Source: Candidatus Poribacteria bacterium (GTDB lineage Bacteria > Poribacteria > WGA-4E > WGA-3G). Taken from it: a stretch of 64,000 bases of DNA. The DNA lies in assembly GCA_963663765.2 (NCBI GenBank), contig CAXXUA010000005.1, forward strand, positions 96,001 to 160,000, written 5' to 3'. Positions within the stretch are counted from its first letter, which is position 1. Each line of letters opens with the position of its first letter. The translations under genes were made by a program, and so were the position numbers. Of this stretch, positions 48,191 through 61,858 are shown piece after piece. Below the pieces are notes generated by a model that saw only the letters and a program-made list of their open reading frames with translations, was not told where the DNA came from and searched no databases.

Positions 48191-50920
48191 ATGGCAAATT
48201 ATTACGCAGAAAGCATCTCATTTCTGCTGAACCAATTTAATACAGACTTGGAAGCCGGTTTAAGCCATGCAGAAGTAGAGAAGTTGAGGGAACGTTTTGG
48301 TGAAAACAAACCGAATTTCAAAATGGATAATGTACATATAGTACCATTTCTTCAGCAAATGCTAAACTGGAGATTATTCCTATTATTAATCACCACAGTG
48401 GTCAGTGTAATCTTCTTTGATAACAGGTTGCTCACCTTGCTAATTGGCACAATTTTGATTCTAACCTTTTGTTGGGGAATTATAGTCACAATCAATTTCA
48501 AACGTAAACGTAGACACTACAAAACGCTATTCAACCACACTGTTTCCGTAATACGCCAAGGTAAACAAGAAAAGTGCCTACCTTCCGACATCGTACCTGG
48601 AGACTTGCTGCTACTTAGACAAGGTAACTACATCCCCGCAGATGCACGTATCGTTCAAGCAGATGGACTAACTGTCAATGAATCTGCCCTATTCGGAAGT
48701 AGCGGTTCAGCAACAAAAACCGTAAAACAGATTAGTGAAAACGGACTATCACCTGAAAAACAGACAAACATGGTCTTTGGTGGTACTTATGTTGATGCTG
48801 GAATAGGACATGCTGTTGTGGTCAGAATAGGAAACGAACTGGAGATGTACCAGAACCCTAACAACACACGACAGATGCCTAATGAGATGACAATCGCAGA
48901 AAATCAGATAAACTTCTTCAGAGATATTCTGAAAGTTACTGGTATTGTTTTAGGGGGAATCGCCGTTTCTATTTATTGGTGGCAAAACTCACAGCAGAAC
49001 GTTTCACCGAATTGGGAAGAATTCATCCAAGTCGGTTTAATCTTTGCAATCGCTGCTACGCCTTATAACCTTTCCTTGCTTCTACACATCATCCTTGAAA
49101 ATAGAACCATAAATCTAATAAAAAAAGGTATTGTACTTCGGAATAGGCATTTCTTTGAAAAACTGAACCGACTCACTGCTTTCTGCACAGATGAAAAAGG
49201 TATCGCAAGTACAACTTCGCTTACTATTTCCAACATCTTCGTTGATGAACAGATTATCAATCGATCCGTATGGGAAAAATGGGTGAAATCTCTGGAATCT
49301 CAATCACAAGAAGAAATAAGTAAGCGAGTCAACAATATCCCACCAGGATTCCACATTCCACAGGGGGCGCCCGGATTAGTCTTGACAGCAGGATTAGGAA
49401 CTTCAGGTGAACGCTATTATGATAGAACTGATATTGATCACGCACATCAGCATGTAATACAAAATACTATGGAACAACTTGGATACAAACTAACCGACTT
49501 GACTCTAAATATGAAACTCATAGCTGAATACCCATGGACACCAAACTTTGGCTATGAACTTCATGTATTTGAATCGGGCGAAAACGAATATCTAAACATT
49601 CTATTCGGTGATGCGCACAACGTGCTTGAAGCTTGTGATTCTATACTCATAAATGGTGAAGTAACAGAACTTCGCTATGATCAGTATGAACTCTGTCATG
49701 AAACTCTCAACTATATGCAAAATGCAAGGGATACGGTTTACGGTGTAGCATCCATAGATTCTAACATGCCTTTTACACCTCACGACGTGTATGGTCCCTC
49801 TACTTTTCTGGGGTTCATCAGTTTTTCTGTCACTGATATCAAAGAGACAAAAGAGGTCGTAAAATCATTTCTTGATACTGGTATAAAGGTAATTCTATTA
49901 AGTGAAAGTGATGAGTTAACGACGACAGACTTAGCAAAAGAACTCGGTCTCATCCACACACGAAACGCTGTCGGTACAAGACAAGAACTCATGCAACTTA
50001 ATACCCAAGAATTCGACCAAGAAGTACCAAATTGGAATGCGTACTCACAACCCACCCAGGAACAGCGCAGAAATATCGTACTCAGTCTAAAACGACACAA
50101 CCACTCGATCGGTTATTTAGGGCAAAGTTCCATCGACCAACGCGCAATGACTACTGCTGACTTGGTTTTTGCTGATACAAGATATGCAACCCATTTTGCA
50201 CAAGACCATGCGGATTGTTTGATTATTGACAAAGGTTTTAAAGCAGTTAAAGATTGCTTACTCTATGCACGCGAAGCATATCTAAATCTTGCTGGCTCAA
50301 TACGATGGTGCCTCTCTTGCACACTAGCACAGTTATTGACTGTCCTCTTTGGACTAATCTTGCAAGTAGGGTTCAACTTTGAAATGCCACTTACACTCAC
50401 TCAAGTAATCTGGGTACAGTTTCTGACAACGATGATCCCAGCAATAGGTTTAGGTTACGAACAGATTTTTCTTAATGAGACACAACACCACCCGAGCAGA
50501 AGAACAAACCTGTTACCAAAAACGGCTGTGATGGACATTATCTGTAGAAGCCTTGGTATAAGTCTAATGACAATAATTCACTTTCTTGTATTAACATCTA
50601 CTGCTACTGAATCCAACCTTGAACAAGCACGTACCGCAGCCTGCACTACATTGATCTGTACACAGGTGCTTTCATATTTCCAATGTGCACGCTATCCGTG
50701 GGAGTCGTTATTTAAAAGGATGTTCGCAAACTTCCGTCTACTCTTAGCTCTTATATTCGCTATCGGTCTACACGTAGCAGCAATGTACTTTGAACCAATT
50801 CAGACTATTTTAGATATAGTTCCACTTCAGAACGATTGGATCATTACAGCCTTATGTAGTGTAATTTTGTTGTTGTTACCATTGAATTTGGCAATAAACC
50901 CACGAAAAGAAAGTAATTGA
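48191..50920 (+). CDS. Degenerate P-type (P2-like) ATPase homolog
   Basis: Full P2 topology (VPGD, IPADAR, about 10 TM), but DKTGT is DEKGI, TGES is FGSS and GDGVND is GQSSID. Confidence 0.85.
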   Translation: MANYYAESISFLLNQFNTDLEAGLSHAEVEKLRERFGENKPNFKMDNVHIVPFLQQMLNWRLFLLLITTVVSVIFFDNRLLTLLIGTILILTFCWGIIVTINFKRKRRHYKTLFNHTVSVIRQGKQEKCLPSDIVPGDLLLLRQGNYIPADARIVQADGLTVNESALFGSSGSATKTVKQISENGLSPEKQTNMVFGGTYVDAGIGHAVVVRIGNELEMYQNPNNTRQMPNEMTIAENQINFFRDILKVTGIVLGGIAVSIYWWQNSQQNVSPNWEEFIQVGLIFAIAATPYNLSLLLHIILENRTINLIKKGIVLRNRHFFEKLNRLTAFCTDEKGIASTTSLTISNIFVDEQIINRSVWEKWVKSLESQSQEEISKRVNNIPPGFHIPQGAPGLVLTAGLGTSGERYYDRTDIDHAHQHVIQNTMEQLGYKLTDLTLNMKLIAEYPWTPNFGYELHVFESGENEYLNILFGDAHNVLEACDSILINGEVTELRYDQYELCHETLNYMQNARDTVYGVASIDSNMPFTPHDVYGPSTFLGFISFSVTDIKETKEVVKSFLDTGIKVILLSESDELTTTDLAKELGLIHTRNAVGTRQELMQLNTQEFDQEVPNWNAYSQPTQEQRRNIVLSLKRHNHSIGYLGQSSIDQRAMTTADLVFADTRYATHFAQDHADCLIIDKGFKAVKDCLLYAREAYLNLAGSIRWCLSCTLAQLLTVLFGLILQVGFNFEMPLTLTQVIWVQFLTTMIPAIGLGYEQIFLNETQHHPSRRTNLLPKTAVMDIICRSLGISLMTIIHFLVLTSTATESNLEQARTAACTTLICTQVLSYFQCARYPWESLFKRMFANFRLLLALIFAIGLHVAAMYFEPIQTILDIVPLQNDWIITALCSVILLLLPLNLAINPRKESN

Positions 50921-51106
50921 ACCCCGTAAACACAACTGAAATTCAGACCAATAATTCCAATAATTTTCAAATACACTACTGTGAAGTCCCTGTAATAATT
51001 CCAATTCTAATATGGTGAATCTTATAGCAGATTTTAAAATACTTGGACATTGCTACCGGTCCGGTTGGAAGACAGTTCCTACCGCATTTCCTGTAGCACA
51101 AACTTT

Positions 51107-51375
51107 ATTAAGATTAATTTATTAAACGGGTAATCATTTATTTTTCACTCGGTAGGCGGGGAATGCCTAAAGAAGCATGCGCGTATGGCATGCTCCATGA
51201 TTCATACCCGGGGAATGCCTAAATGGCATTCATACCGTTGATTTCTTGATTTCTTGATTACTTGATTTGGTGCTTTGTAAGCGCGCTGATATGTCAAAAC
51301 CCAACAGCGCGCTTACAAAGCACGCCTACCGTGGCTGGATTAGGAGAATTACCTAATTTATTTATTAATCTTCAT
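51107..51375. mobile_element. MITE family B inserted in a REP loop, with multiply nested micro-elements
   Basis: Flanks rejoin as GTAGCACAAACTTT|TTAGTTTATG. Nested insert at 51159-51270. Confidence 0.8.
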
Positions 51376-51660
51376 TTAGTTTATGTCGTATTTGCGCAAA
51401 CTGAAAGTTTACGCTACAGAGGTGTAAGGATAATTACAAATATTATTAAATAAATGGCATTTCTACCCACGGTAGATGCGGTTTCCATACCAATGCATAA
51501 TCTCAAACCGTTGATTTTTAGGAATACCTATTTAATTTTAACGAGTACACTTGTCATAACTTTTAATAAATTCTAATCTAAATAATCAATGGCACTTCAC
51601 TTCGTGTCTTAGTTCTTACTCGCTATGAGTTAATAAGCAATTTCCTGTAACGTAAACTTT

Positions 51661-51816
51661 ATGAAGATTAATTTATTAATTGGGTAATAAATATTTCTCA
51701 TACGGTAGGCGTGCTTTGTAAGCGCGCTCTTGGGACTTGATGTACCAGCGCGCTTACAAAGCACGCCTACCAGGGTAGGTTAGATAAAATATCCTAATTA
51801 ATTTTATAATCTTCAT
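51661..51816. mobile_element. MITE family B, empty REP pair, inserted in a REP loop
   Basis: Flanks rejoin as GTAACGTAAACTTT|TCAGTTTGCG. Confidence 0.8.
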
Positions 51817-51948
51817 TCAGTTTGCGGTCCTCGGATGCACAAAAAAATATAATGTGATACAAAGTGCGGTTATGTGAACAGAATTCAAAACATTAAGGAT
51901 TTCATATCACTTACACCGAGTTAACGTTAACGTACAAAGGAGTATATA

Positions 51949-54897
51949 ATGAAAACAATTTTGTTTATTGTATCCATCGCAGTACTAATCGGTTTAGCTG
52001 CTGGATGCGATGAAATGCAAGATCAAGTTATGAAACCTATAACGATGCCTGACGACGAAGTTATTACAGAAGATGACATGGTAACATCCATGGGTACAAT
52101 GAAGGATCCCTCTACAGAAACTGATGATACAGAAGAGGATACCCCTGTCGAAACGCAAACACCCGATGCATTATTCGTAAGTGCGACACCCGCAAGCGGA
52201 GAAATTTCGGTAAACGGGAGTATCACCATTGAATTTGACAACGACCCGGGGGACGTATCAGCGAGTGAAGGGACAGTCACAGGCTCCGGTAATACACGGA
52301 CTATTAGTGGTCCTTTTACTGTTGGTTCGCTTGCCCTCACGATTACATGGCCAAACGGGGATGGCAGCCACACACTGAACTATAACGTCGTTGCCGATGA
52401 TACAACCCCGCCAATGGTTACAACAAGTAGCACTACTAACGGTGCTGTAGACATTGACCCTGCTACAGTCTTTCAAAATGGAATCACTGTCACTTTCAAC
52501 GAAACAATTATCAGCGGAACACTCAGATTGTTGAAAAACGGAGAAAATGTCGGGTGGACATTAAGTATTCAAAATAATACAATCACACTCACACCAAACA
52601 CTGGTCAAGAACTCAGCCACGATACAATGTATCAGATCGTCGGCACTGTAAAAGACGCAGCCAATAACGAAACTGATGTGAGTATCTCCTTCACAACCAA
52701 ATCAGAACCTGCACCACCTCCTCCGCAAACGCTTGTCGCAGCGTTTGTAAGTGCGTCACCCGCAAGCGGAGATACTTCGGAATACGGGGGTATCACCATT
52801 GAATTTGACAACGACCCGGGCGATGTAACAACGAGTGAAGGGACAGTCACAGGCTCCGGAAATTCACGGACTATTAGTGGTCCTTTTACTGTTGGTTCGC
52901 TTACCATCACGATTACATGGCCAAATGGGAATGGCAGCCACACACTGAACTATAACGTCGTTGCCGATGATACAACCTCGCCAATGCTTACAACCAGTAG
53001 CACTACTAACGGTGCTGTAGACATTGACCCTGCTACAGTGTTTGAAAATGGATTCACTGTCACTTTCAACGAAACGATTATCAGCGGAACACTCAGATTG
53101 TTGAAAAACGGAGAAAATGTCGGGTGGACTTCAAGTATTCAAAATAATACAATCACACTCACACCAAACGCTGATCAAAAACTCAGCCACGATACAATGT
53201 ATCAGATCGTTGGCACTGTAAAAGACGCAGCCGATAATGAAACCGATGTGAGCATCTCCTTCACAACCAAATCAGCACCTGCACCACCCCCTCCGCAAAC
53301 ACCTGTCGCTGCGTTTGTAAGTGCGACACCCGCAAGTGGGAATATTTCGGAAAACGGGAGTATCACCATCAATTTTGACAACGACCCAGGTGCCGTAACA
53401 GCGGGTAGTGGGACAGTCACAGGCTCCGGAAATTCACGGACTATTAGTGGTCCTTTTACTGTTGGATCGCTTGCCCTCACGATTACATGGCCAAATGGGA
53501 ATGGCAGCCACACACTGAACTATAACGTCGTTGCCGATGATACAACCTCGCCAATGCTTACAACCAGTAGCACTACTAACGGTGCTGTAGACATTGACCC
53601 TGCTACAGTGTTTGAAAATGGATTCACTGTCACTTTCAACGAAACGATTATCAGCGGAACACTCAGATTGTTGAAAAACGGAGAAAATGTCGGGTGGACT
53701 TCAAGTATTCAAAATAATACAATCACACTCACACCAAACGCTGGTCAAGAACTCAACCACGATACAATGTATCAGATCGTGGGCACTGTAAAAGACGCAG
53801 CCGATAATGAAACCGATGTGAGCATCTCCTTCACAACTAAATCAGCACCTGCACCACCCCCTCCGCAAACACCTGTCGCTGCGTTTGTAAGTGCAACACC
53901 CGCAAGTGGGAATATTTCGGAAAACGGGAGTATCACCATCAATTTTGACAACGACCCAGGTGCCGTAACAGCGAGTAGTGGGACAGTCACAGGCTCCGGA
54001 AATTCACGGACTATTAGTGGTCCTTTTACTGTTGGTTCGCTTGCCCTCACCATTACATGGCCAAATGGGAATGGCAGCCACACGTTGAACTATAACGTCG
54101 TTGCCGATGATACAACCTCGCCAATGGTTACAACAAGTAGCACTACTAACGGTGCTGTAGACATTGACCCTGCTACACTGTTTGAAAATGGATTTACTGT
54201 CACTTTCAACGAAACGATTATCAGCGGAACACTGAGATTGTTGAAAAACGGAGAAAATGTCGGGTGGACTTCAAGTATTCAAAATAATACAATCACACTC
54301 ACACCAAACGCTGGTCAAGAACTCAGCCACGATACAATGTATCAGATCGTCGGCACTGTAAAAGACGCAGCCGATAACGAAACTGATGTGAGCATCTCCT
54401 TCACAACCAAATCAGAACCTGCACCAGTTGTGACACTGGATCCAGGTGAGGGCTTAAGTAACGGTGCCGAAGCACCCGATTTTGAATTGTTGGATGGTGA
54501 TGGAAATACGTACAGTCTTTCGGAGTATAGTGGGATAGTCGTGATTGTATTCTATCGGGGTGGTTGGTGACCGTATTGTCGTGAGCAACTCAGTGAGTTG
54601 CAAGAATACGCCAGTCAAATTTCAGAGGCAGGTGCATCGCTCATTGCAATCAGTTCCGATAGCCAAAGTGCTACCAAAGAGACAGTTCAAAATCTCAGCC
54701 TCTCGTTCACGGTACTATCTGATAGCAGCATAACGGCAATTTCTGCATACAACGTCGTTGATCAAGGCAACACTAGAATTGCCAGACCCGCAACCTATAT
54801 TATCAAATCAGACGGTACGGTCGGATGGAAATCTCTTGGTTCTACTTCGACAAGGGTTTCAACCGCTGACACTCTAACTGCATTGGGTGAACTCTAA
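51949..54897 (+). CDS. Putative selenoprotein: lipoprotein with 4 Ig-like repeats and a C-terminal AhpC/TSA-type redoxin domain (UPYC), 982 aa
   Basis: Lipobox AAGC. In-frame TGA at 54568-54570 in FYRGGW*PYCREQL. Frame continues to TAA at 54897 through AISSD, LSD and RPATYII. Confidence 0.88.
52156..54426 (+). repeat. Four tandem 570-bp (190-aa) intragenic repeats
   Basis: Units start at 52156, 52726, 53296 and 53866 and are near-identical in DNA. Confidence 0.97.
54572..54610 (+). promoter_or_regulatory. Candidate bacterial SECIS element
   Basis: CGTATT(54572)...GCAACTC-AGT-GAGTTGC...AATACG(54610). G-containing apical loop about 22 nt after the UGA. Confidence 0.75.
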
Positions 54898-54949
54898 AGA
54901 GTGCGTGATGATACGTCTGGTATTCATCAATATGATATCTTGGGTACGA

Positions 54950-55071
54950 TCTCTTGTGGGCGGGTTTTCAATCCCGATTTAACAATTTGAATCCTGCGAA
55001 ATCGGTGTTTGTAACACCGATTTCGCAGGATTTATGCTGTTTTTTCGGGGTTACAAGACCTCTCCCACAAG
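54950..55071. repeat. REP pair enclosing a perfect 20-bp-arm hairpin
   Basis: CTTGTGGG...CCCACAAG flanks. AATCCTGCGAAATCGGTGTT-tgt-AACACCGATTTCGCAGGATT at 54990-55032. Confidence 0.8.
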
Positions 55072-55344
55072 ATGATATATCCTAAAGTTACCAACTATAG
55101 GATTGAGATTTCGTCAGCTCATAGAGGGCATCCTTGCAAAAAATGTTATGCAGTAAGGAAACCTATCCAAATTTTCAAGAAGGAAGAGATCCATCTCAAT
55201 AATTCTGACGATATAATGAAGGTAAAACTCACAATAGACATTCTTTTTTTTAGGTGTATAACCAAATACGACCTTATACCAATTCAAATAAATCTTGTCT
55301 CATTAAGGAATTCTACTGTTTACTAGCAGGGGGTTACTCTCTTC

Positions 55345-55388
55345 GGTAGGAGCGACCTCCCGGTCGCGACCGGGAGGTCGCTCCTACC
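55345..55388. repeat. Perfect 44-bp palindrome made of two fused GTAG REPs
   Basis: GGTAGGAGCGACCTCCCGGTCG|CGACCGGGAGGTCGCTCCTACC. A spaced relative lies at about 62141-62203. Confidence 0.9.
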
Positions 55389-55677
55389 AGATTTCCGCTG
55401 CTAATGAGACATTATCACATGAAAATGGTATTACTTGTCATTAGACTATCTGACACCTATTGAATTCTAACAAGAACATCTGTCTTAACTTTTAATAAAT
55501 TCTGGTCTAAATAATCAATAGTAATTCAGACCTTTTTCTTAACAGAAATTCATGGTATAATAGAAATATAGCATTGTTGTTTTACACCTAATATAAATAC
55601 TTTCATTCAGTACCCCTGAATGTTGATACCACACTTTCGCATATTGATCATTTGTAACATCTTATAGAGAGAATCTC

Positions 55678-56481
55678 ATGAACCTATTCAAATCCCTAAA
55701 GCACCAAGTTGAAAAAAAGTTCTACAAGGTGTATCAAAAACAACTGGAAGCAGAAGCAGATACATGGAATATCCCGCGTCATATAGGGGTAATCCTTGAT
55801 GGAAACCGGCGATATGCAAAAGCAAGTGGGTTAGACAATATAATAAAAGGCCACTATGAAGGTGCAGATAAACTTGAGGAAGTGCTTCATTGGTGTGATG
55901 AACTGGGTGTTGAAATTTTCTCTATTTGGATTTTTTCTCTTGACAACTTCAACCGCGCTGACGATGAAGTGGAAGGAATTTTGGGATTAATTGAACGAAA
56001 AATGCGTGATTTAGTAACGACTGAAGGATTACATACAAATCAAATTAAAGTCAGAGCCATGGGACAGATTGAACAACTACCCAAAAGCCTTCAAGAAGCT
56101 ATCCGACAAGCAGAAGAAGCGACCAAAAACTATGACAAATTTATCCTGAACGTTGCTGTTGCCTATGGAGGCCGCGAAGAGATAATTGAAGCGTTCCGTG
56201 GACATCTAAATGCAGAAATTCACAAAGGGAAAAATGCTGAACAAATTGCAGACGATTTGAGTGTTGACAAAATCGCACCATACTTATACACTTCAAACCT
56301 GCCTGACCCAGAACTAATTATCCGAACCAGTGGAGAAGTTAGATTGTCTGGATTCTTGTTATGGCAAAGCGTCTACTCAGAATTCTATTTTTGTGATACA
56401 TACTGGCCATCATTTAGAAAGATTGATTTTCTCCGTGCCATACGCGACTATAGCCACAGAAAACGAAGATTTGGCAAATAA
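55678..56481 (+). CDS. uppS: cis-isoprenyl diphosphate synthase
   Basis: HIGVILDGNRR, FSLDNFNR, YGGREEI and RTSGEVRLSGFLLWQ motifs. Confidence 0.93.
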   Translation: MNLFKSLKHQVEKKFYKVYQKQLEAEADTWNIPRHIGVILDGNRRYAKASGLDNIIKGHYEGADKLEEVLHWCDELGVEIFSIWIFSLDNFNRADDEVEGILGLIERKMRDLVTTEGLHTNQIKVRAMGQIEQLPKSLQEAIRQAEEATKNYDKFILNVAVAYGGREEIIEAFRGHLNAEIHKGKNAEQIADDLSVDKIAPYLYTSNLPDPELIIRTSGEVRLSGFLLWQSVYSEFYFCDTYWPSFRKIDFLRAIRDYSHRKRRFGK

Positions 56482-60016: not shown

Positions 60017-61858
60017 CTATTTCAATATGATCATCCGTTTGGTCTGTTGGAAAGTTGGAGTTGTCAGTTGATAGAAATAGACACCACTTGAAACCGCCTC
60101 TCCAAACGCATTCTGTCCATCCCAAAAAACAGCGTTCCCACGACTCTGATAGAAACCTGCCGATTGATGACCAAGCGAAAATTCTCTGACAGTTTTCCCT
60201 GTGGCGTCATAAATAGATAGAGACACAACGCCAGCTTCTGCAAGATGAAATGGAAGCCATGTTTCAGGATTAAACGGGTTTGGGTAATTCTGCAGAAGTT
60301 GACTCTGCTTCGGGGTACCGATATTACCAAGTTTCACATTCATAACAGCGTTTTCAAGATGCGTTGCATTCACAGTGAAACTGTACTTTTCAGACACGAT
60401 ATTTCCGTTCGTATCAACAACGGTTATTTCAAGCTTGTCACCGACTTCTACAACACTGCGATAACTGAGGTCTGCTGTGGCTGCAGCAAAGTAATTACTG
60501 CGCACAAGAGAGGTCATGACAGTGTCTGTCCGCAGGTTTCGGACCTTAACGGTGAAACCGTTGGCAATCTGTATTCCATCTAAGTTTCCGCTGACAACAA
60601 ATGCCCACACACTTGGTGATACAACTTTAGCTATAGTAGGCGCTGCTGCGATCTCACTTCCGTCTATCCACCGAGATCCAACAAAGGCAAAATTCCGAGG
60701 TTGTGGAACATTGACGATATAACCTTGTCCACCTTCAATTTGAAAACCATCATCTGGAGCACTTGGAGTCCAACCGATAAAACGCTGGTTTTTTGCATCA
60801 AGTCTGATAATCGTTGTTGCGCCTGTTAAAGCTACAAGACTCTTGGCACTCATCTGCGTTGGCGGTGCTAATGGCACAGAAAACATATTTAAACCTTTAG
60901 AAAAGGTTACATTAAATGCATGTCCAAAAAGATCACTCTCAGCCTTCGTTACGGGATTAGCGACAAACCCATGTCTACGTCCATCGGACGAGTCATAATA
61001 TCCAATGATACTCCCATCCTGATTGATATTTCGTACCACAGTGCTAACACTCCCTGGTAATCGCAATTCTTGGGGGGTGCCACCTGGCAAAAGAATATAG
61101 GAACGCGGGATGTCATTTACTGCTTTTGCTCTGAAGATGACAACACCTACATCATTGATGGCATTGACGAATAGGAATTCCAGATTCGGTAATTCTGGCA
61201 CATCCACAGTGATAAAACTACCGTCTGGATTACGCATGAAACCGTGAGCTATGCCATCGGTACCTACGTAGCTGCCGACGATTACACCTTCAGCGTTGAC
61301 AAAATCAGCATAAGTTGTTACTGCTCCAGGAAACATGACGGGTAGATCGCCTGAGAAGCCTCGGATGTTACCTTCCGCATCAAAGATGTTACCGCTCAGT
61401 GCTCCTGTTTCATCGCTAATACCGTAGATGTTGGTTTGTACTGCGCCGGGAAAATCGTATTGGGTGAGTACTTCATCTTCCATGATTAAGCCGTGATACA
61501 GTCCATCTTGTCCTATGTAATGCCCCACAGCTATTCCGTTATTGGCAAGTCCATAGAAATAGGTATTTACGGATCCTGGGAAGTCATAAGTTTTAAATAC
61601 GCCGTCTATCAATGTAAAGCCGATGGTTTTCGTGCCATCAGAACTCCGGGTGTTGCCTGCATAACCTCCGAAGTCGTTACTTGCTGTTAACTCCAAAAAA
61701 TCAACACTGGGAACATCAATCGACTCATAGATATAGTAGGGTGAGGATATTTCAGAAACAGAGACAGGAACTGGTACAGGTTGTGCGTTGATTTGCCAAA
61801 CAGGACAACTGATTAGACACAAAAACAAGAGAAGTTTTGTTATTATATGGTGATTCAT
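60017..61858 (-). CDS. Secreted protein with HAF-like repeats and a C-terminal FlgD-Ig/T9SS-CTD-like domain
   Basis: Signal peptide, DFPG..T..YG....G...G.Y...DG..HG repeats, LLQNYPNPFNPETW...SGVYFYQL...MIILK. Confidence 0.85.
   Translation of the reverse strand: MNHHIITKLLLFLCLISCPVWQINAQPVPVPVSVSEISSPYYIYESIDVPSVDFLELTASNDFGGYAGNTRSSDGTKTIGFTLIDGVFKTYDFPGSVNTYFYGLANNGIAVGHYIGQDGLYHGLIMEDEVLTQYDFPGAVQTNIYGISDETGALSGNIFDAEGNIRGFSGDLPVMFPGAVTTYADFVNAEGVIVGSYVGTDGIAHGFMRNPDGSFITVDVPELPNLEFLFVNAINDVGVVIFRAKAVNDIPRSYILLPGGTPQELRLPGSVSTVVRNINQDGSIIGYYDSSDGRRHGFVANPVTKAESDLFGHAFNVTFSKGLNMFSVPLAPPTQMSAKSLVALTGATTIIRLDAKNQRFIGWTPSAPDDGFQIEGGQGYIVNVPQPRNFAFVGSRWIDGSEIAAAPTIAKVVSPSVWAFVVSGNLDGIQIANGFTVKVRNLRTDTVMTSLVRSNYFAAATADLSYRSVVEVGDKLEITVVDTNGNIVSEKYSFTVNATHLENAVMNVKLGNIGTPKQSQLLQNYPNPFNPETWLPFHLAEAGVVSLSIYDATGKTVREFSLGHQSAGFYQSRGNAVFWDGQNAFGEAVSSGVYFYQLTTPTFQQTKRMIILK

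Follow-up and report, generated by a model that had tools for sequence, protein, structure and literature searches.

The gene at 51949-54897 of a 64,000-nucleotide (nt) stretch of a Candidatus Poribacteria genome (GenBank assembly GCA_963663765.2, contig CAXXUA010000005.1, positions 96,001 to 160,000 of the forward strand; the whole stretch is referred to as the window) contains one in-frame TGA. We consider it very probable, on sequence grounds, that this TGA is read as selenocysteine (Sec, U) and that the gene encodes a single exported, lipid-anchored selenoprotein, in which a peroxiredoxin (Prx)-like redox head is carried on a stalk of immunoglobulin (Ig)-like domains. Feature coordinates are collected in Table 1.

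The list of open reading frames (ORFs) gave an ORF of 873 amino acids (aa) at 51949..54570 with the C-terminus ...VVIVFYRGGW, GIVVIVFYRGGW, followed by the TGA, and, in frame with it, a second ORF of 99 aa from 54598 to 54897. Translation of 51949-54897 with TGA as U produced 982 residues with one non-standard step (U874), in the motif FYRGGW-U-PY-C that ends on C877, and with 108 residues C-terminal to the TGA. The Pfam models AhpC-TSA (residues 839-959, E 8.9e-32; PF00578, 110.1 bits against a gathering threshold of 26) and Redoxin (residues 839-975, E 2.1e-21) both bridge the TGA, and the downstream part therefore completes the redoxin domain, as a sequence-only reading of this DNA had proposed when it extended the frame by these 108 residues. 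Around the TGA, an 812-nt contig from a separate sequencing run, X1, which may nevertheless be the source sample, covered 54489-55050 at depth 114 with 0 differences. Run X8 did not reach the TGA, and the RNA runs X10 and X11 yielded no alignment to 54250-55050. Sponge metagenomes were among the sequencing runs with parts of the gene.

Table 1. Position, strand and supporting evidence of features in and beside the selenoprotein gene (window coordinates)
Feature	Position	Strand	Evidence or remark
Whole gene, 982 codons read through the TGA	51949..54897	+	TAA stop at 54895-54897
Predicted signal peptide, lipobox L-A-A-G-C (Cys20), Asp at +2	51949..52008	+	Sequence, ortholog N-termini
Acidic Thr/Pro/Glu/Asp-rich linker, presumably disordered, residues ~21-68	52009..52153	+	No Pfam domain
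Four tandem 570-nt (190-aa) units, each CopC-like (A) + Big_5 (B), ABABABAB	52154..54433	+	Repeat search, Pfam, structure model
AhpC/TSA (Prx-like, thioredoxin-fold) domain, residues 839-959; Redoxin model to 975	54463..54825	+	Pfam, structure model, PDB matches
UGA as predicted selenocysteine (U874), first position of the U-P-Y-C motif	54568..54570	+	Frame, homolog alignment
TGT, Cys877, putative resolving partner in the UxxC motif	54577..54579	+	Aligns to the A. pernix BCP peroxidatic Cys
Bacterial SECIS-type stem-loop, 7-bp stem, loop AGU, encodes Q-L-S-E-L	54585..54601	+	Fold, covariation, codon skew
Perfect 20-bp+ hairpin then T-run, probable terminator	54988..55034	+	Fold; inside nested palindrome ~54955-55070

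Homologs were collected from the same genome and its relatives by six-frame searches with the 153-aa head. This gave 58 candidate frames with TGA-x-x-Cys and long open flanks, of which two were unrelated and were dropped; 56 were kept (55 distinct). TGA-x-x-TGY was present in 56/56 homologous genes with protein conservation on both flanks, and the family consensus F[YFDHNS]R..[WGFLH]-U-x-x-C-..-Q-[LF]-x-[EQ]-L held in the same 56/56. In the genome itself, one TGA was present in each of four family members, and TGA-bearing redoxins that are more distantly related were found as well. Across 40 relatives, exactly one TGA was found in every match among those listed, to E = 3.4e-12. For the phylum scan, 139/151 genomes gave a match at E <= 1e-20, with 99/99 in family f1, and exactly one TGA was present in 150/150 among the matches listed (with 163 further matches). 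Poribacteria genomes carried 2-5 paralogs each in the family searched. Whether the TGA is confined to this assembly had been raised for checking when the selenoprotein was proposed; it is not.

Homologs from other phyla carried Cys at the same place. These Cys forms (e.g., Jeotgalibacillus, Variovorax, Zetaproteobacteria) were 33-39% identical, read VIVFYRGGWCPYCN (FYRGGWCPYC) and are named 'peroxiredoxin-like family protein' at source. Cys occupied the TGA column in 8/9 full-length database rows, which, beside the TGA of the 56 Poribacteria homologs, agrees with the earlier proposal that the family normally has Cys there. The ninth row (P0004, a public predicted protein of 216 aa and of the paralog type) had W in the Sec column (FYRMGT-W-GFC); its source presumably translated TGA as Trp. 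The 120 database matches listed included 14 C-terminal fragments of 98-100 aa that start just past the TGA, one of them 93% identical to the window; annotation pipelines therefore split such genes, as the sequence-only reading had anticipated.

The passages of PMC1088965 on the bacterial Sec insertion sequence (SECIS) describe a stem-loop that lies a short way downstream of the UGA and is capped by a small apical loop containing G. An ungapped alignment of the 56 sequences, numbered from the T of TGA as 1, paired core columns 19-24 (CAACTC) with columns 28-33 (GAGTTG) across a 3-nt loop. For the window, this conserved 6-bp core (54586-54591/54595-54600) lies within a 7-bp stem (54585-54591/54595-54601) closed by the loop AGU at 54592-54594. 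The spacing from TGA to hairpin was 15 nt for the core and 14 nt for the 7-bp form. All six core pairs were standard in 55/55 distinct sequences, and the seventh, G-C, was present in 32/55. Both sides had changed at three core pairs (A-U to G-C four times, C-G to U-A twice and C-G to G-C four times), with G-U intermediates present. The covariation score was reached by 0/500 shuffles, and sliding the partner by 1-3 columns lowered pairing from 94.5% to 15.6-47%. Loop variants were AGU, GGU, GUU, GGA, GGC, GUG, GUA and GUC, always with G at position 1 or 2.

Codon choice within the stem was skewed relative to the background elsewhere in the same genes: CTC at Leu1 (50/54 vs 16.9%), TTG at Leu2 (52/56 vs 15.9%) and GAG at Glu (51/52 vs 25.8%). 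Compensatory pairs that alter the protein were also observed (L to F with synonymous GAG to GAA; E to Q with CTC to CTG), and such protein-altering changes that keep the pairing are as an RNA constraint predicts. For the Cys-form control, three distant genes paired at just 2-4/6 positions at the same spacing. SelB-dependent recoding at the hairpin is a well-supported prediction. A two-stem hairpin beginning 1 nt past the UGA had been drawn from the window sequence, and its two parts fared differently. The upper stem-loop was conserved among the TGA-bearing homologs, with all 55 distinct sequences paired and with covariation, whereas the lower stem formed in the window's own fold, was out of register in the folds of the homologs and was rejected.

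The same CAACTC/GAGTTG hairpin was seen in three more Sec-redoxin family genes of this genome (contig C5, 472223-473437; contig C15, 303679-304125). Two of the three form a tandem pair, one member of which has a CarboxypepD_reg stalk; many relatives also have tandem pairs. At C8:52531-52935 and C6:87872-88237, redoxin homologs of greater distance (23-28% identity) each had one in-frame TGA, which suggests additional selenoprotein families in the genome.

The genome (6.35 Mb, 15 contigs, 41% GC) holds all four genes, selA, selB, selC and selD, that had been put forward as the check on Sec decoding. Genome profile searches recovered selA (545 bits) and selB (361.6 bits, above the cut-off). A tRNA-Sec with anticodon tca starts 54 nt past the end of selB, and selA, selB and tRNA-Sec all fall inside one 13-kb stretch (C4:273361-286385). 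The selD gene (367.6 bits; C2:220603-221529) has its own in-frame TGA, in VKCAG-U-ASKLAP, which makes SelD itself a selenoprotein. TGA still closes 273/1513 long open frames in the genome; therefore, there is no general code reassignment.

The window N-terminus, MKTILFIVSIAVLIGLAAG-C-DEMQ, fits the lipoprotein signal pattern, and a ..GCDE[MV]Q N-terminus (MK..GCDE[MV]Q) was present in 10/10 same-genus orthologs. Across the wider family, the lipobox pattern was found in 35/56 N-termini, and many others had a hydrophobic segment ending in Cys. The repeat units of the stalk start at ~52154, 52724, 53294 and 53864. Nucleotide identity was 97.5% between units 3 and 4, 94% between units 2 and 3, and ~85% for unit 1 vs the rest, so that the array is read as the product of recent tandem duplications with units 3 and 4 the youngest copies. 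Tandem Repeats Finder reported no array, the 570-nt period being beyond its limit; a direct-repeat search recovered it. Big_5 (PF13205) matched four stretches (E 2.5e-38, 131.4 bits against a threshold of 23.6). CopC (PF04234) scored 70.4 bits over the whole protein with no single window stretch above threshold, although one stretch passes in the L066 ortholog, and the CopC match is taken as fold resemblance only. Unit 4 and the head (343 residues) were modelled with AlphaFold2 from a 45-row alignment. The model (mean predicted local distance difference test score, pLDDT, 91.8; predicted template modelling score, pTM, 0.59) showed all-beta domains at 1-80 and 85-182, the latter at pLDDT ~90, followed by a thioredoxin fold. 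With two all-beta domains per unit, eight beta-sandwich domains are a fair reading. The lipobox N-termini, the 570-nt repeats and the two beta-sandwiches per unit are all in keeping with the exported lipoprotein of four repeats and eight Ig-like domains that the sequence-only reading had put forward.

The stalk differed widely among orthologs of the same genus. With A for the CopC-like and B for the Big_5 module, the order was ABABABAB in the window (982 aa), ABABAB in G049 (834 aa), AAAAAAB in G047 (842 aa), AAAAAB in G100 (800 aa) and G005 (772 aa), AAB in G052 (520 aa), AB in G002 and G012 (450 aa) and G021 (424 aa), and A with a B remnant in G001 (372 aa). Stalks of 1, 2, 3, 6, 7 or 8 modules occur within one genus, duplicated as AB units (two genomes) or as A only (four). 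As module orders differ among same-genus orthologs, stalk length therefore changes quickly, by two duplication modes.

The CopC-like and Big_5 stalk characterises the present ortholog group; elsewhere in Poribacteria the heads sit on several beta-sandwich spacers, with CarboxypepD_reg x1-3, often in tandem gene pairs, and another form has an N-terminal head, then Big_9, then an unknown C-terminal domain. Variants with an N-terminal Sec-redoxin, then Big_9 and then ~200 conserved C-terminal residues that no Pfam model matches were observed in other families of the order (L056-L058, L063-L065); the locus L063 has two back-to-back Sec-redoxin frames. An anchored Ig-like stalk of variable length is undescribed as far as checked. 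One conjecture, to which we give a low probability, is that the stalk serves as an evolvable ruler: selection would repeatedly retune the distance between selenol and membrane (for example across an unusually wide periplasm or into the sponge matrix, so as to meet host oxidants or reduce extracellular disulfides), and the lipoprotein family would be a main reason for Sec retention in sponge-symbiont Poribacteria.

Positions C235 and C238 of alignment A3, which are the U and C of UxxC, were invariant, and in the AlphaFold2 model they stand at the N-terminus of the first helix (236-254). The best solved matches from Foldseek were Bcp4 (3hjp, E 3.7e-12) and, with TM scores of 0.85-0.91, AhpE and BcpB. 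The best PDB sequence match was A. pernix BCP (2cx3, E 3e-14), whose peroxidatic Cys corresponds to Cys877 and whose Ser of SPVC corresponds to U874. ResA (3c71, E 4e-11) was also matched; its CPHC aligns to UPYC, with the N-terminal nucleophilic Cys at U874. The Prx signature P-x-x-x-T/S-x-x-C is absent from the head, where Sec stands in the Ser column of 2cx3. By PF00578, the motif and the relevant passages of published descriptions (the exemplar WP_010940744.1 by description only), the head forms a new branch within a known group of UxxC selenoproteins, the Prx-like thiol:disulfide oxidoreductases.

Several points weigh against this account of the gene. The homologs are kin, and the counts therefore overstate independence. 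Because the stem encodes the conserved peptide Q-L-x-E-L, hairpin conservation is in part protein-level. With its 3-nt loop the hairpin is a small one, and the minimum free energy (MFE) of the 81-nt region 54560-54640 was no better than that of shuffles (z -0.02), so that thermodynamics alone does not single it out. An Rfam scan of 50000-56000 (E <= 10) returned no SECIS or credible Rfam family, and sub-threshold miRNA-like matches fell on palindromes only. The lipobox was matched with a PROSITE-style expression rather than with a trained predictor. The count of four units comes from this assembly alone, and in run X1 the short-read contigs break up inside the repeats. No NCBIfam model reached its cut-off for the head: scores were 52.9 vs 170 bits for ResA (NF002854), 27.1 vs 230 for TlpA (NF047696), 19.4 vs 123 for dsbE (TIGR00385), 40.8 vs 140 for BCP (NF006960), 37.1 vs 260 for PrxQ (NF053650), 22 vs 272 for AhpC (TIGR03137) and 39.1 vs 120 for the SelL-related model NF040769. 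In the gene neighbourhood (a P-type ATPase, UppS, a trypsin-like protease and RsgA, all unrelated), no reductase or operon partner was found adjoining the gene. Sec incorporation, expression, lipidation and activity are predicted.

Two other readings of the TGA were weighed against Sec. As a true stop codon, or one created by nonsense mutation, it would leave a truncated Ig-repeat lipoprotein and an orphan 99-aa redoxin fragment, as two genes or a pseudogene. Gene callers make exactly such a split, as the 14 public fragments illustrate, and TGA does serve as a stop elsewhere in the genome. Against this, TGA stands at the catalytic Cys column in every one of the 56 homologs and in all 150 of the listed phylum-scan matches, both flanks are conserved and one Pfam domain spans the codon; half a redoxin domain that lacked the active-site helix would not fold, and both a conserved hairpin and a complete Sec machinery are present. 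This reading is extremely improbable. Near-cognate suppression or a local code change might instead place a standard amino acid such as Cys or Trp at the UGA, but this reading too is very unlikely. The W of P0004 at the homologous position would be its precedent, presumably the product of a caller using an alternative code. The genome, however, has a dedicated tRNA-Sec along with SelA, SelB and a Sec-type SelD; the hairpin position and G-containing loop are as expected of a SelB-binding element from the passages of PMC1088965 cited above; and TGA appears at the redox-active Cys column only, while ending many other long frames.

Within the Sec reading, the choice between a thiol:disulfide reductase and a peroxidase is less one-sided; from the sequence we lean towards the reductase. 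A mainly peroxidatic head (Prx- or glutathione peroxidase-like, acting on H2O2 or on organic or halogen-derived oxidants near the surface, and not reducing disulfides of specific envelope proteins) is a substantial though lesser possibility. The best structural matches (Bcp4, AhpE and BcpB) are all peroxiredoxins, and the best PDB sequence match places Cys877 on a peroxidatic Cys. R307, in an IARP motif, is common in the family and lies where Prx enzymes carry their catalytic Arg; it is not kept in the Cys-form homologs, however. Sec also takes the place of the Thr/Ser of the Prx signature, the motif is a thioredoxin-like UxxC that aligns to the CPHC of ResA, and the PrxQ, BCP and AhpC scores are far below their NCBIfam cut-offs. 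The published lists, in the parts that cover this group, file UxxC/PF00578 proteins as 'thiol:disulfide oxidoreductase'.

A mechanism can be proposed for the selenoprotein as follows. SelB and tRNA-Sec, recruited by the in-frame stem-loop, would recode the UGA at 54568-54570, and cleavage and lipid modification of the product would take place at Cys20. In the catalytic cycle, the selenolate would first react with a disulfide, sulfenate or peroxide. Cys877 would then serve as resolving residue by forming a selenenylsulfide, and an envelope reductant, e.g., the genome's DsbD/CcdA-type protein (a DsbD_TM gene is present elsewhere in the genome, none adjoining), would re-reduce the enzyme. The head would then act as a membrane-tethered extracytoplasmic thiol:disulfide or peroxide reductase, up to ~30 nm off its anchor. 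A beta-sandwich domain measures ~4 nm, and eight such domains may give this reach; Asp at +2 is an inner-membrane retention signal in E. coli. The recoding signature, the Sec machinery, the domain architecture and the family distribution are observed in the sequences; localisation, lipidation, substrate and electron donor are our inference.

The head has known relatives. The 'Prx-like protein' or 'Prx-like 1' (pfam00578, UxxC/UxxU) is a listed selenoprotein family in the relevant sections of PMC1088965, PMC2398784, PMC9312934 and PMC13188914, and has been listed since the Sargasso Sea and Global Ocean Sampling (GOS) analyses, with 225 GOS sequences in Table 2 of PMC2398784. According to these sections, PF00578, Sec as the first residue of UxxC, a 3' SECIS with a small G loop and CxxC Cys forms are shared with the present head; unlike them, it forms the C-terminus of a 982-aa lipoprotein with eight beta-sandwich domains. 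The sequence-only reading did not know the architecture from the literature: the UxxC Prx-like head proved to belong to this listed family, and the stalk is undescribed as far as these sources go. The Cys-form 'peroxiredoxin-like family proteins' have an insertion of ~23 residues that is missing from the Poribacteria-specific Sec branch. With TlpA/ResA/CcmG (DsbE) the protein shares an exported, membrane-tethered thioredoxin fold, the U874 equivalence to the ResA nucleophilic Cys and a DsbD_TM gene in the genome. It differs from them in having Sec for Cys and a lipid anchor with a long Ig stalk in place of a single transmembrane helix; its gene also lies outside any cytochrome-maturation or DsbD operon and scores below the NCBIfam cut-offs. 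Among solved structures, BCP/PrxQ and AhpE (2cx3, 3hjp, 1xvw) come nearest in fold (TM up to 0.91) and have their peroxidatic Cys at Cys877, but Sec here replaces the Thr/Ser of their catalytic signature and their equivalog models fall far below cut-off. Sec-containing Prx in the relevant passages of PMC1088965 are TxxU, not UxxC. Lipoprotein selenoproteins are on record as SaoX variants in the portion of bioRxiv 10.1101/2022.07.06.499078 that describes them. The present protein was not mentioned in the main-text passages covered on Poribacteria with selenoprotein or selenocysteine, and no such architecture came up among the papers listed for selenoproteins with a lipoprotein signal, an Ig-like domain or a periplasmic or secreted location.

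Just past the gene stop, the palindrome at 54955-55070 folded at an MFE of -79.4 kcal/mol (z -9.99), drew sub-threshold miRNA-like Rfam matches and coincided with assembly break points in the read contigs. It was considered as a repeat element; its arms are single-copy in the genome, and that reading was therefore dropped for a terminator, the hairpin probably being the transcription terminator of the gene. A further palindromic hairpin, with sub-threshold Rfam matches on both strands, lies at 51268-51325, within the 1 kb of intergenic DNA that precedes the gene. At 60017-61858 on the minus strand, a 613-aa ORF combines a FlgD Ig-like domain with Por_Secre_tail, the C-terminal sorting domain of type IX secretion, which hints at surface display of the type IX secretion system kind in this Poribacteria genome.

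The chemistry of a UxxC Prx-like selenoprotein was already known. The analysis corrects an annotation error, as public collections hold truncated N-terminal proteins and 99-aa fragments of such genes. The compact in-frame SECIS, with its natural compensatory variants, is usable in recoding studies, and the orthologs, whose shared head is carried on anything from 1 to 8 domains, form a natural series in which the importance of reach for an envelope redox enzyme can be studied. Slaby et al. (PMC5649159) reported, in the passages concerned, that SelA and SelB COGs co-occur in most sponge-symbiont bins and not in reference relatives, and left this unexplained. By the reading given here, an uncultured phylum of sponge symbionts puts Sec into several exported, lipid-anchored redoxins per genome, which would give the SelA/SelB enrichment seen in sponge symbionts a concrete use.

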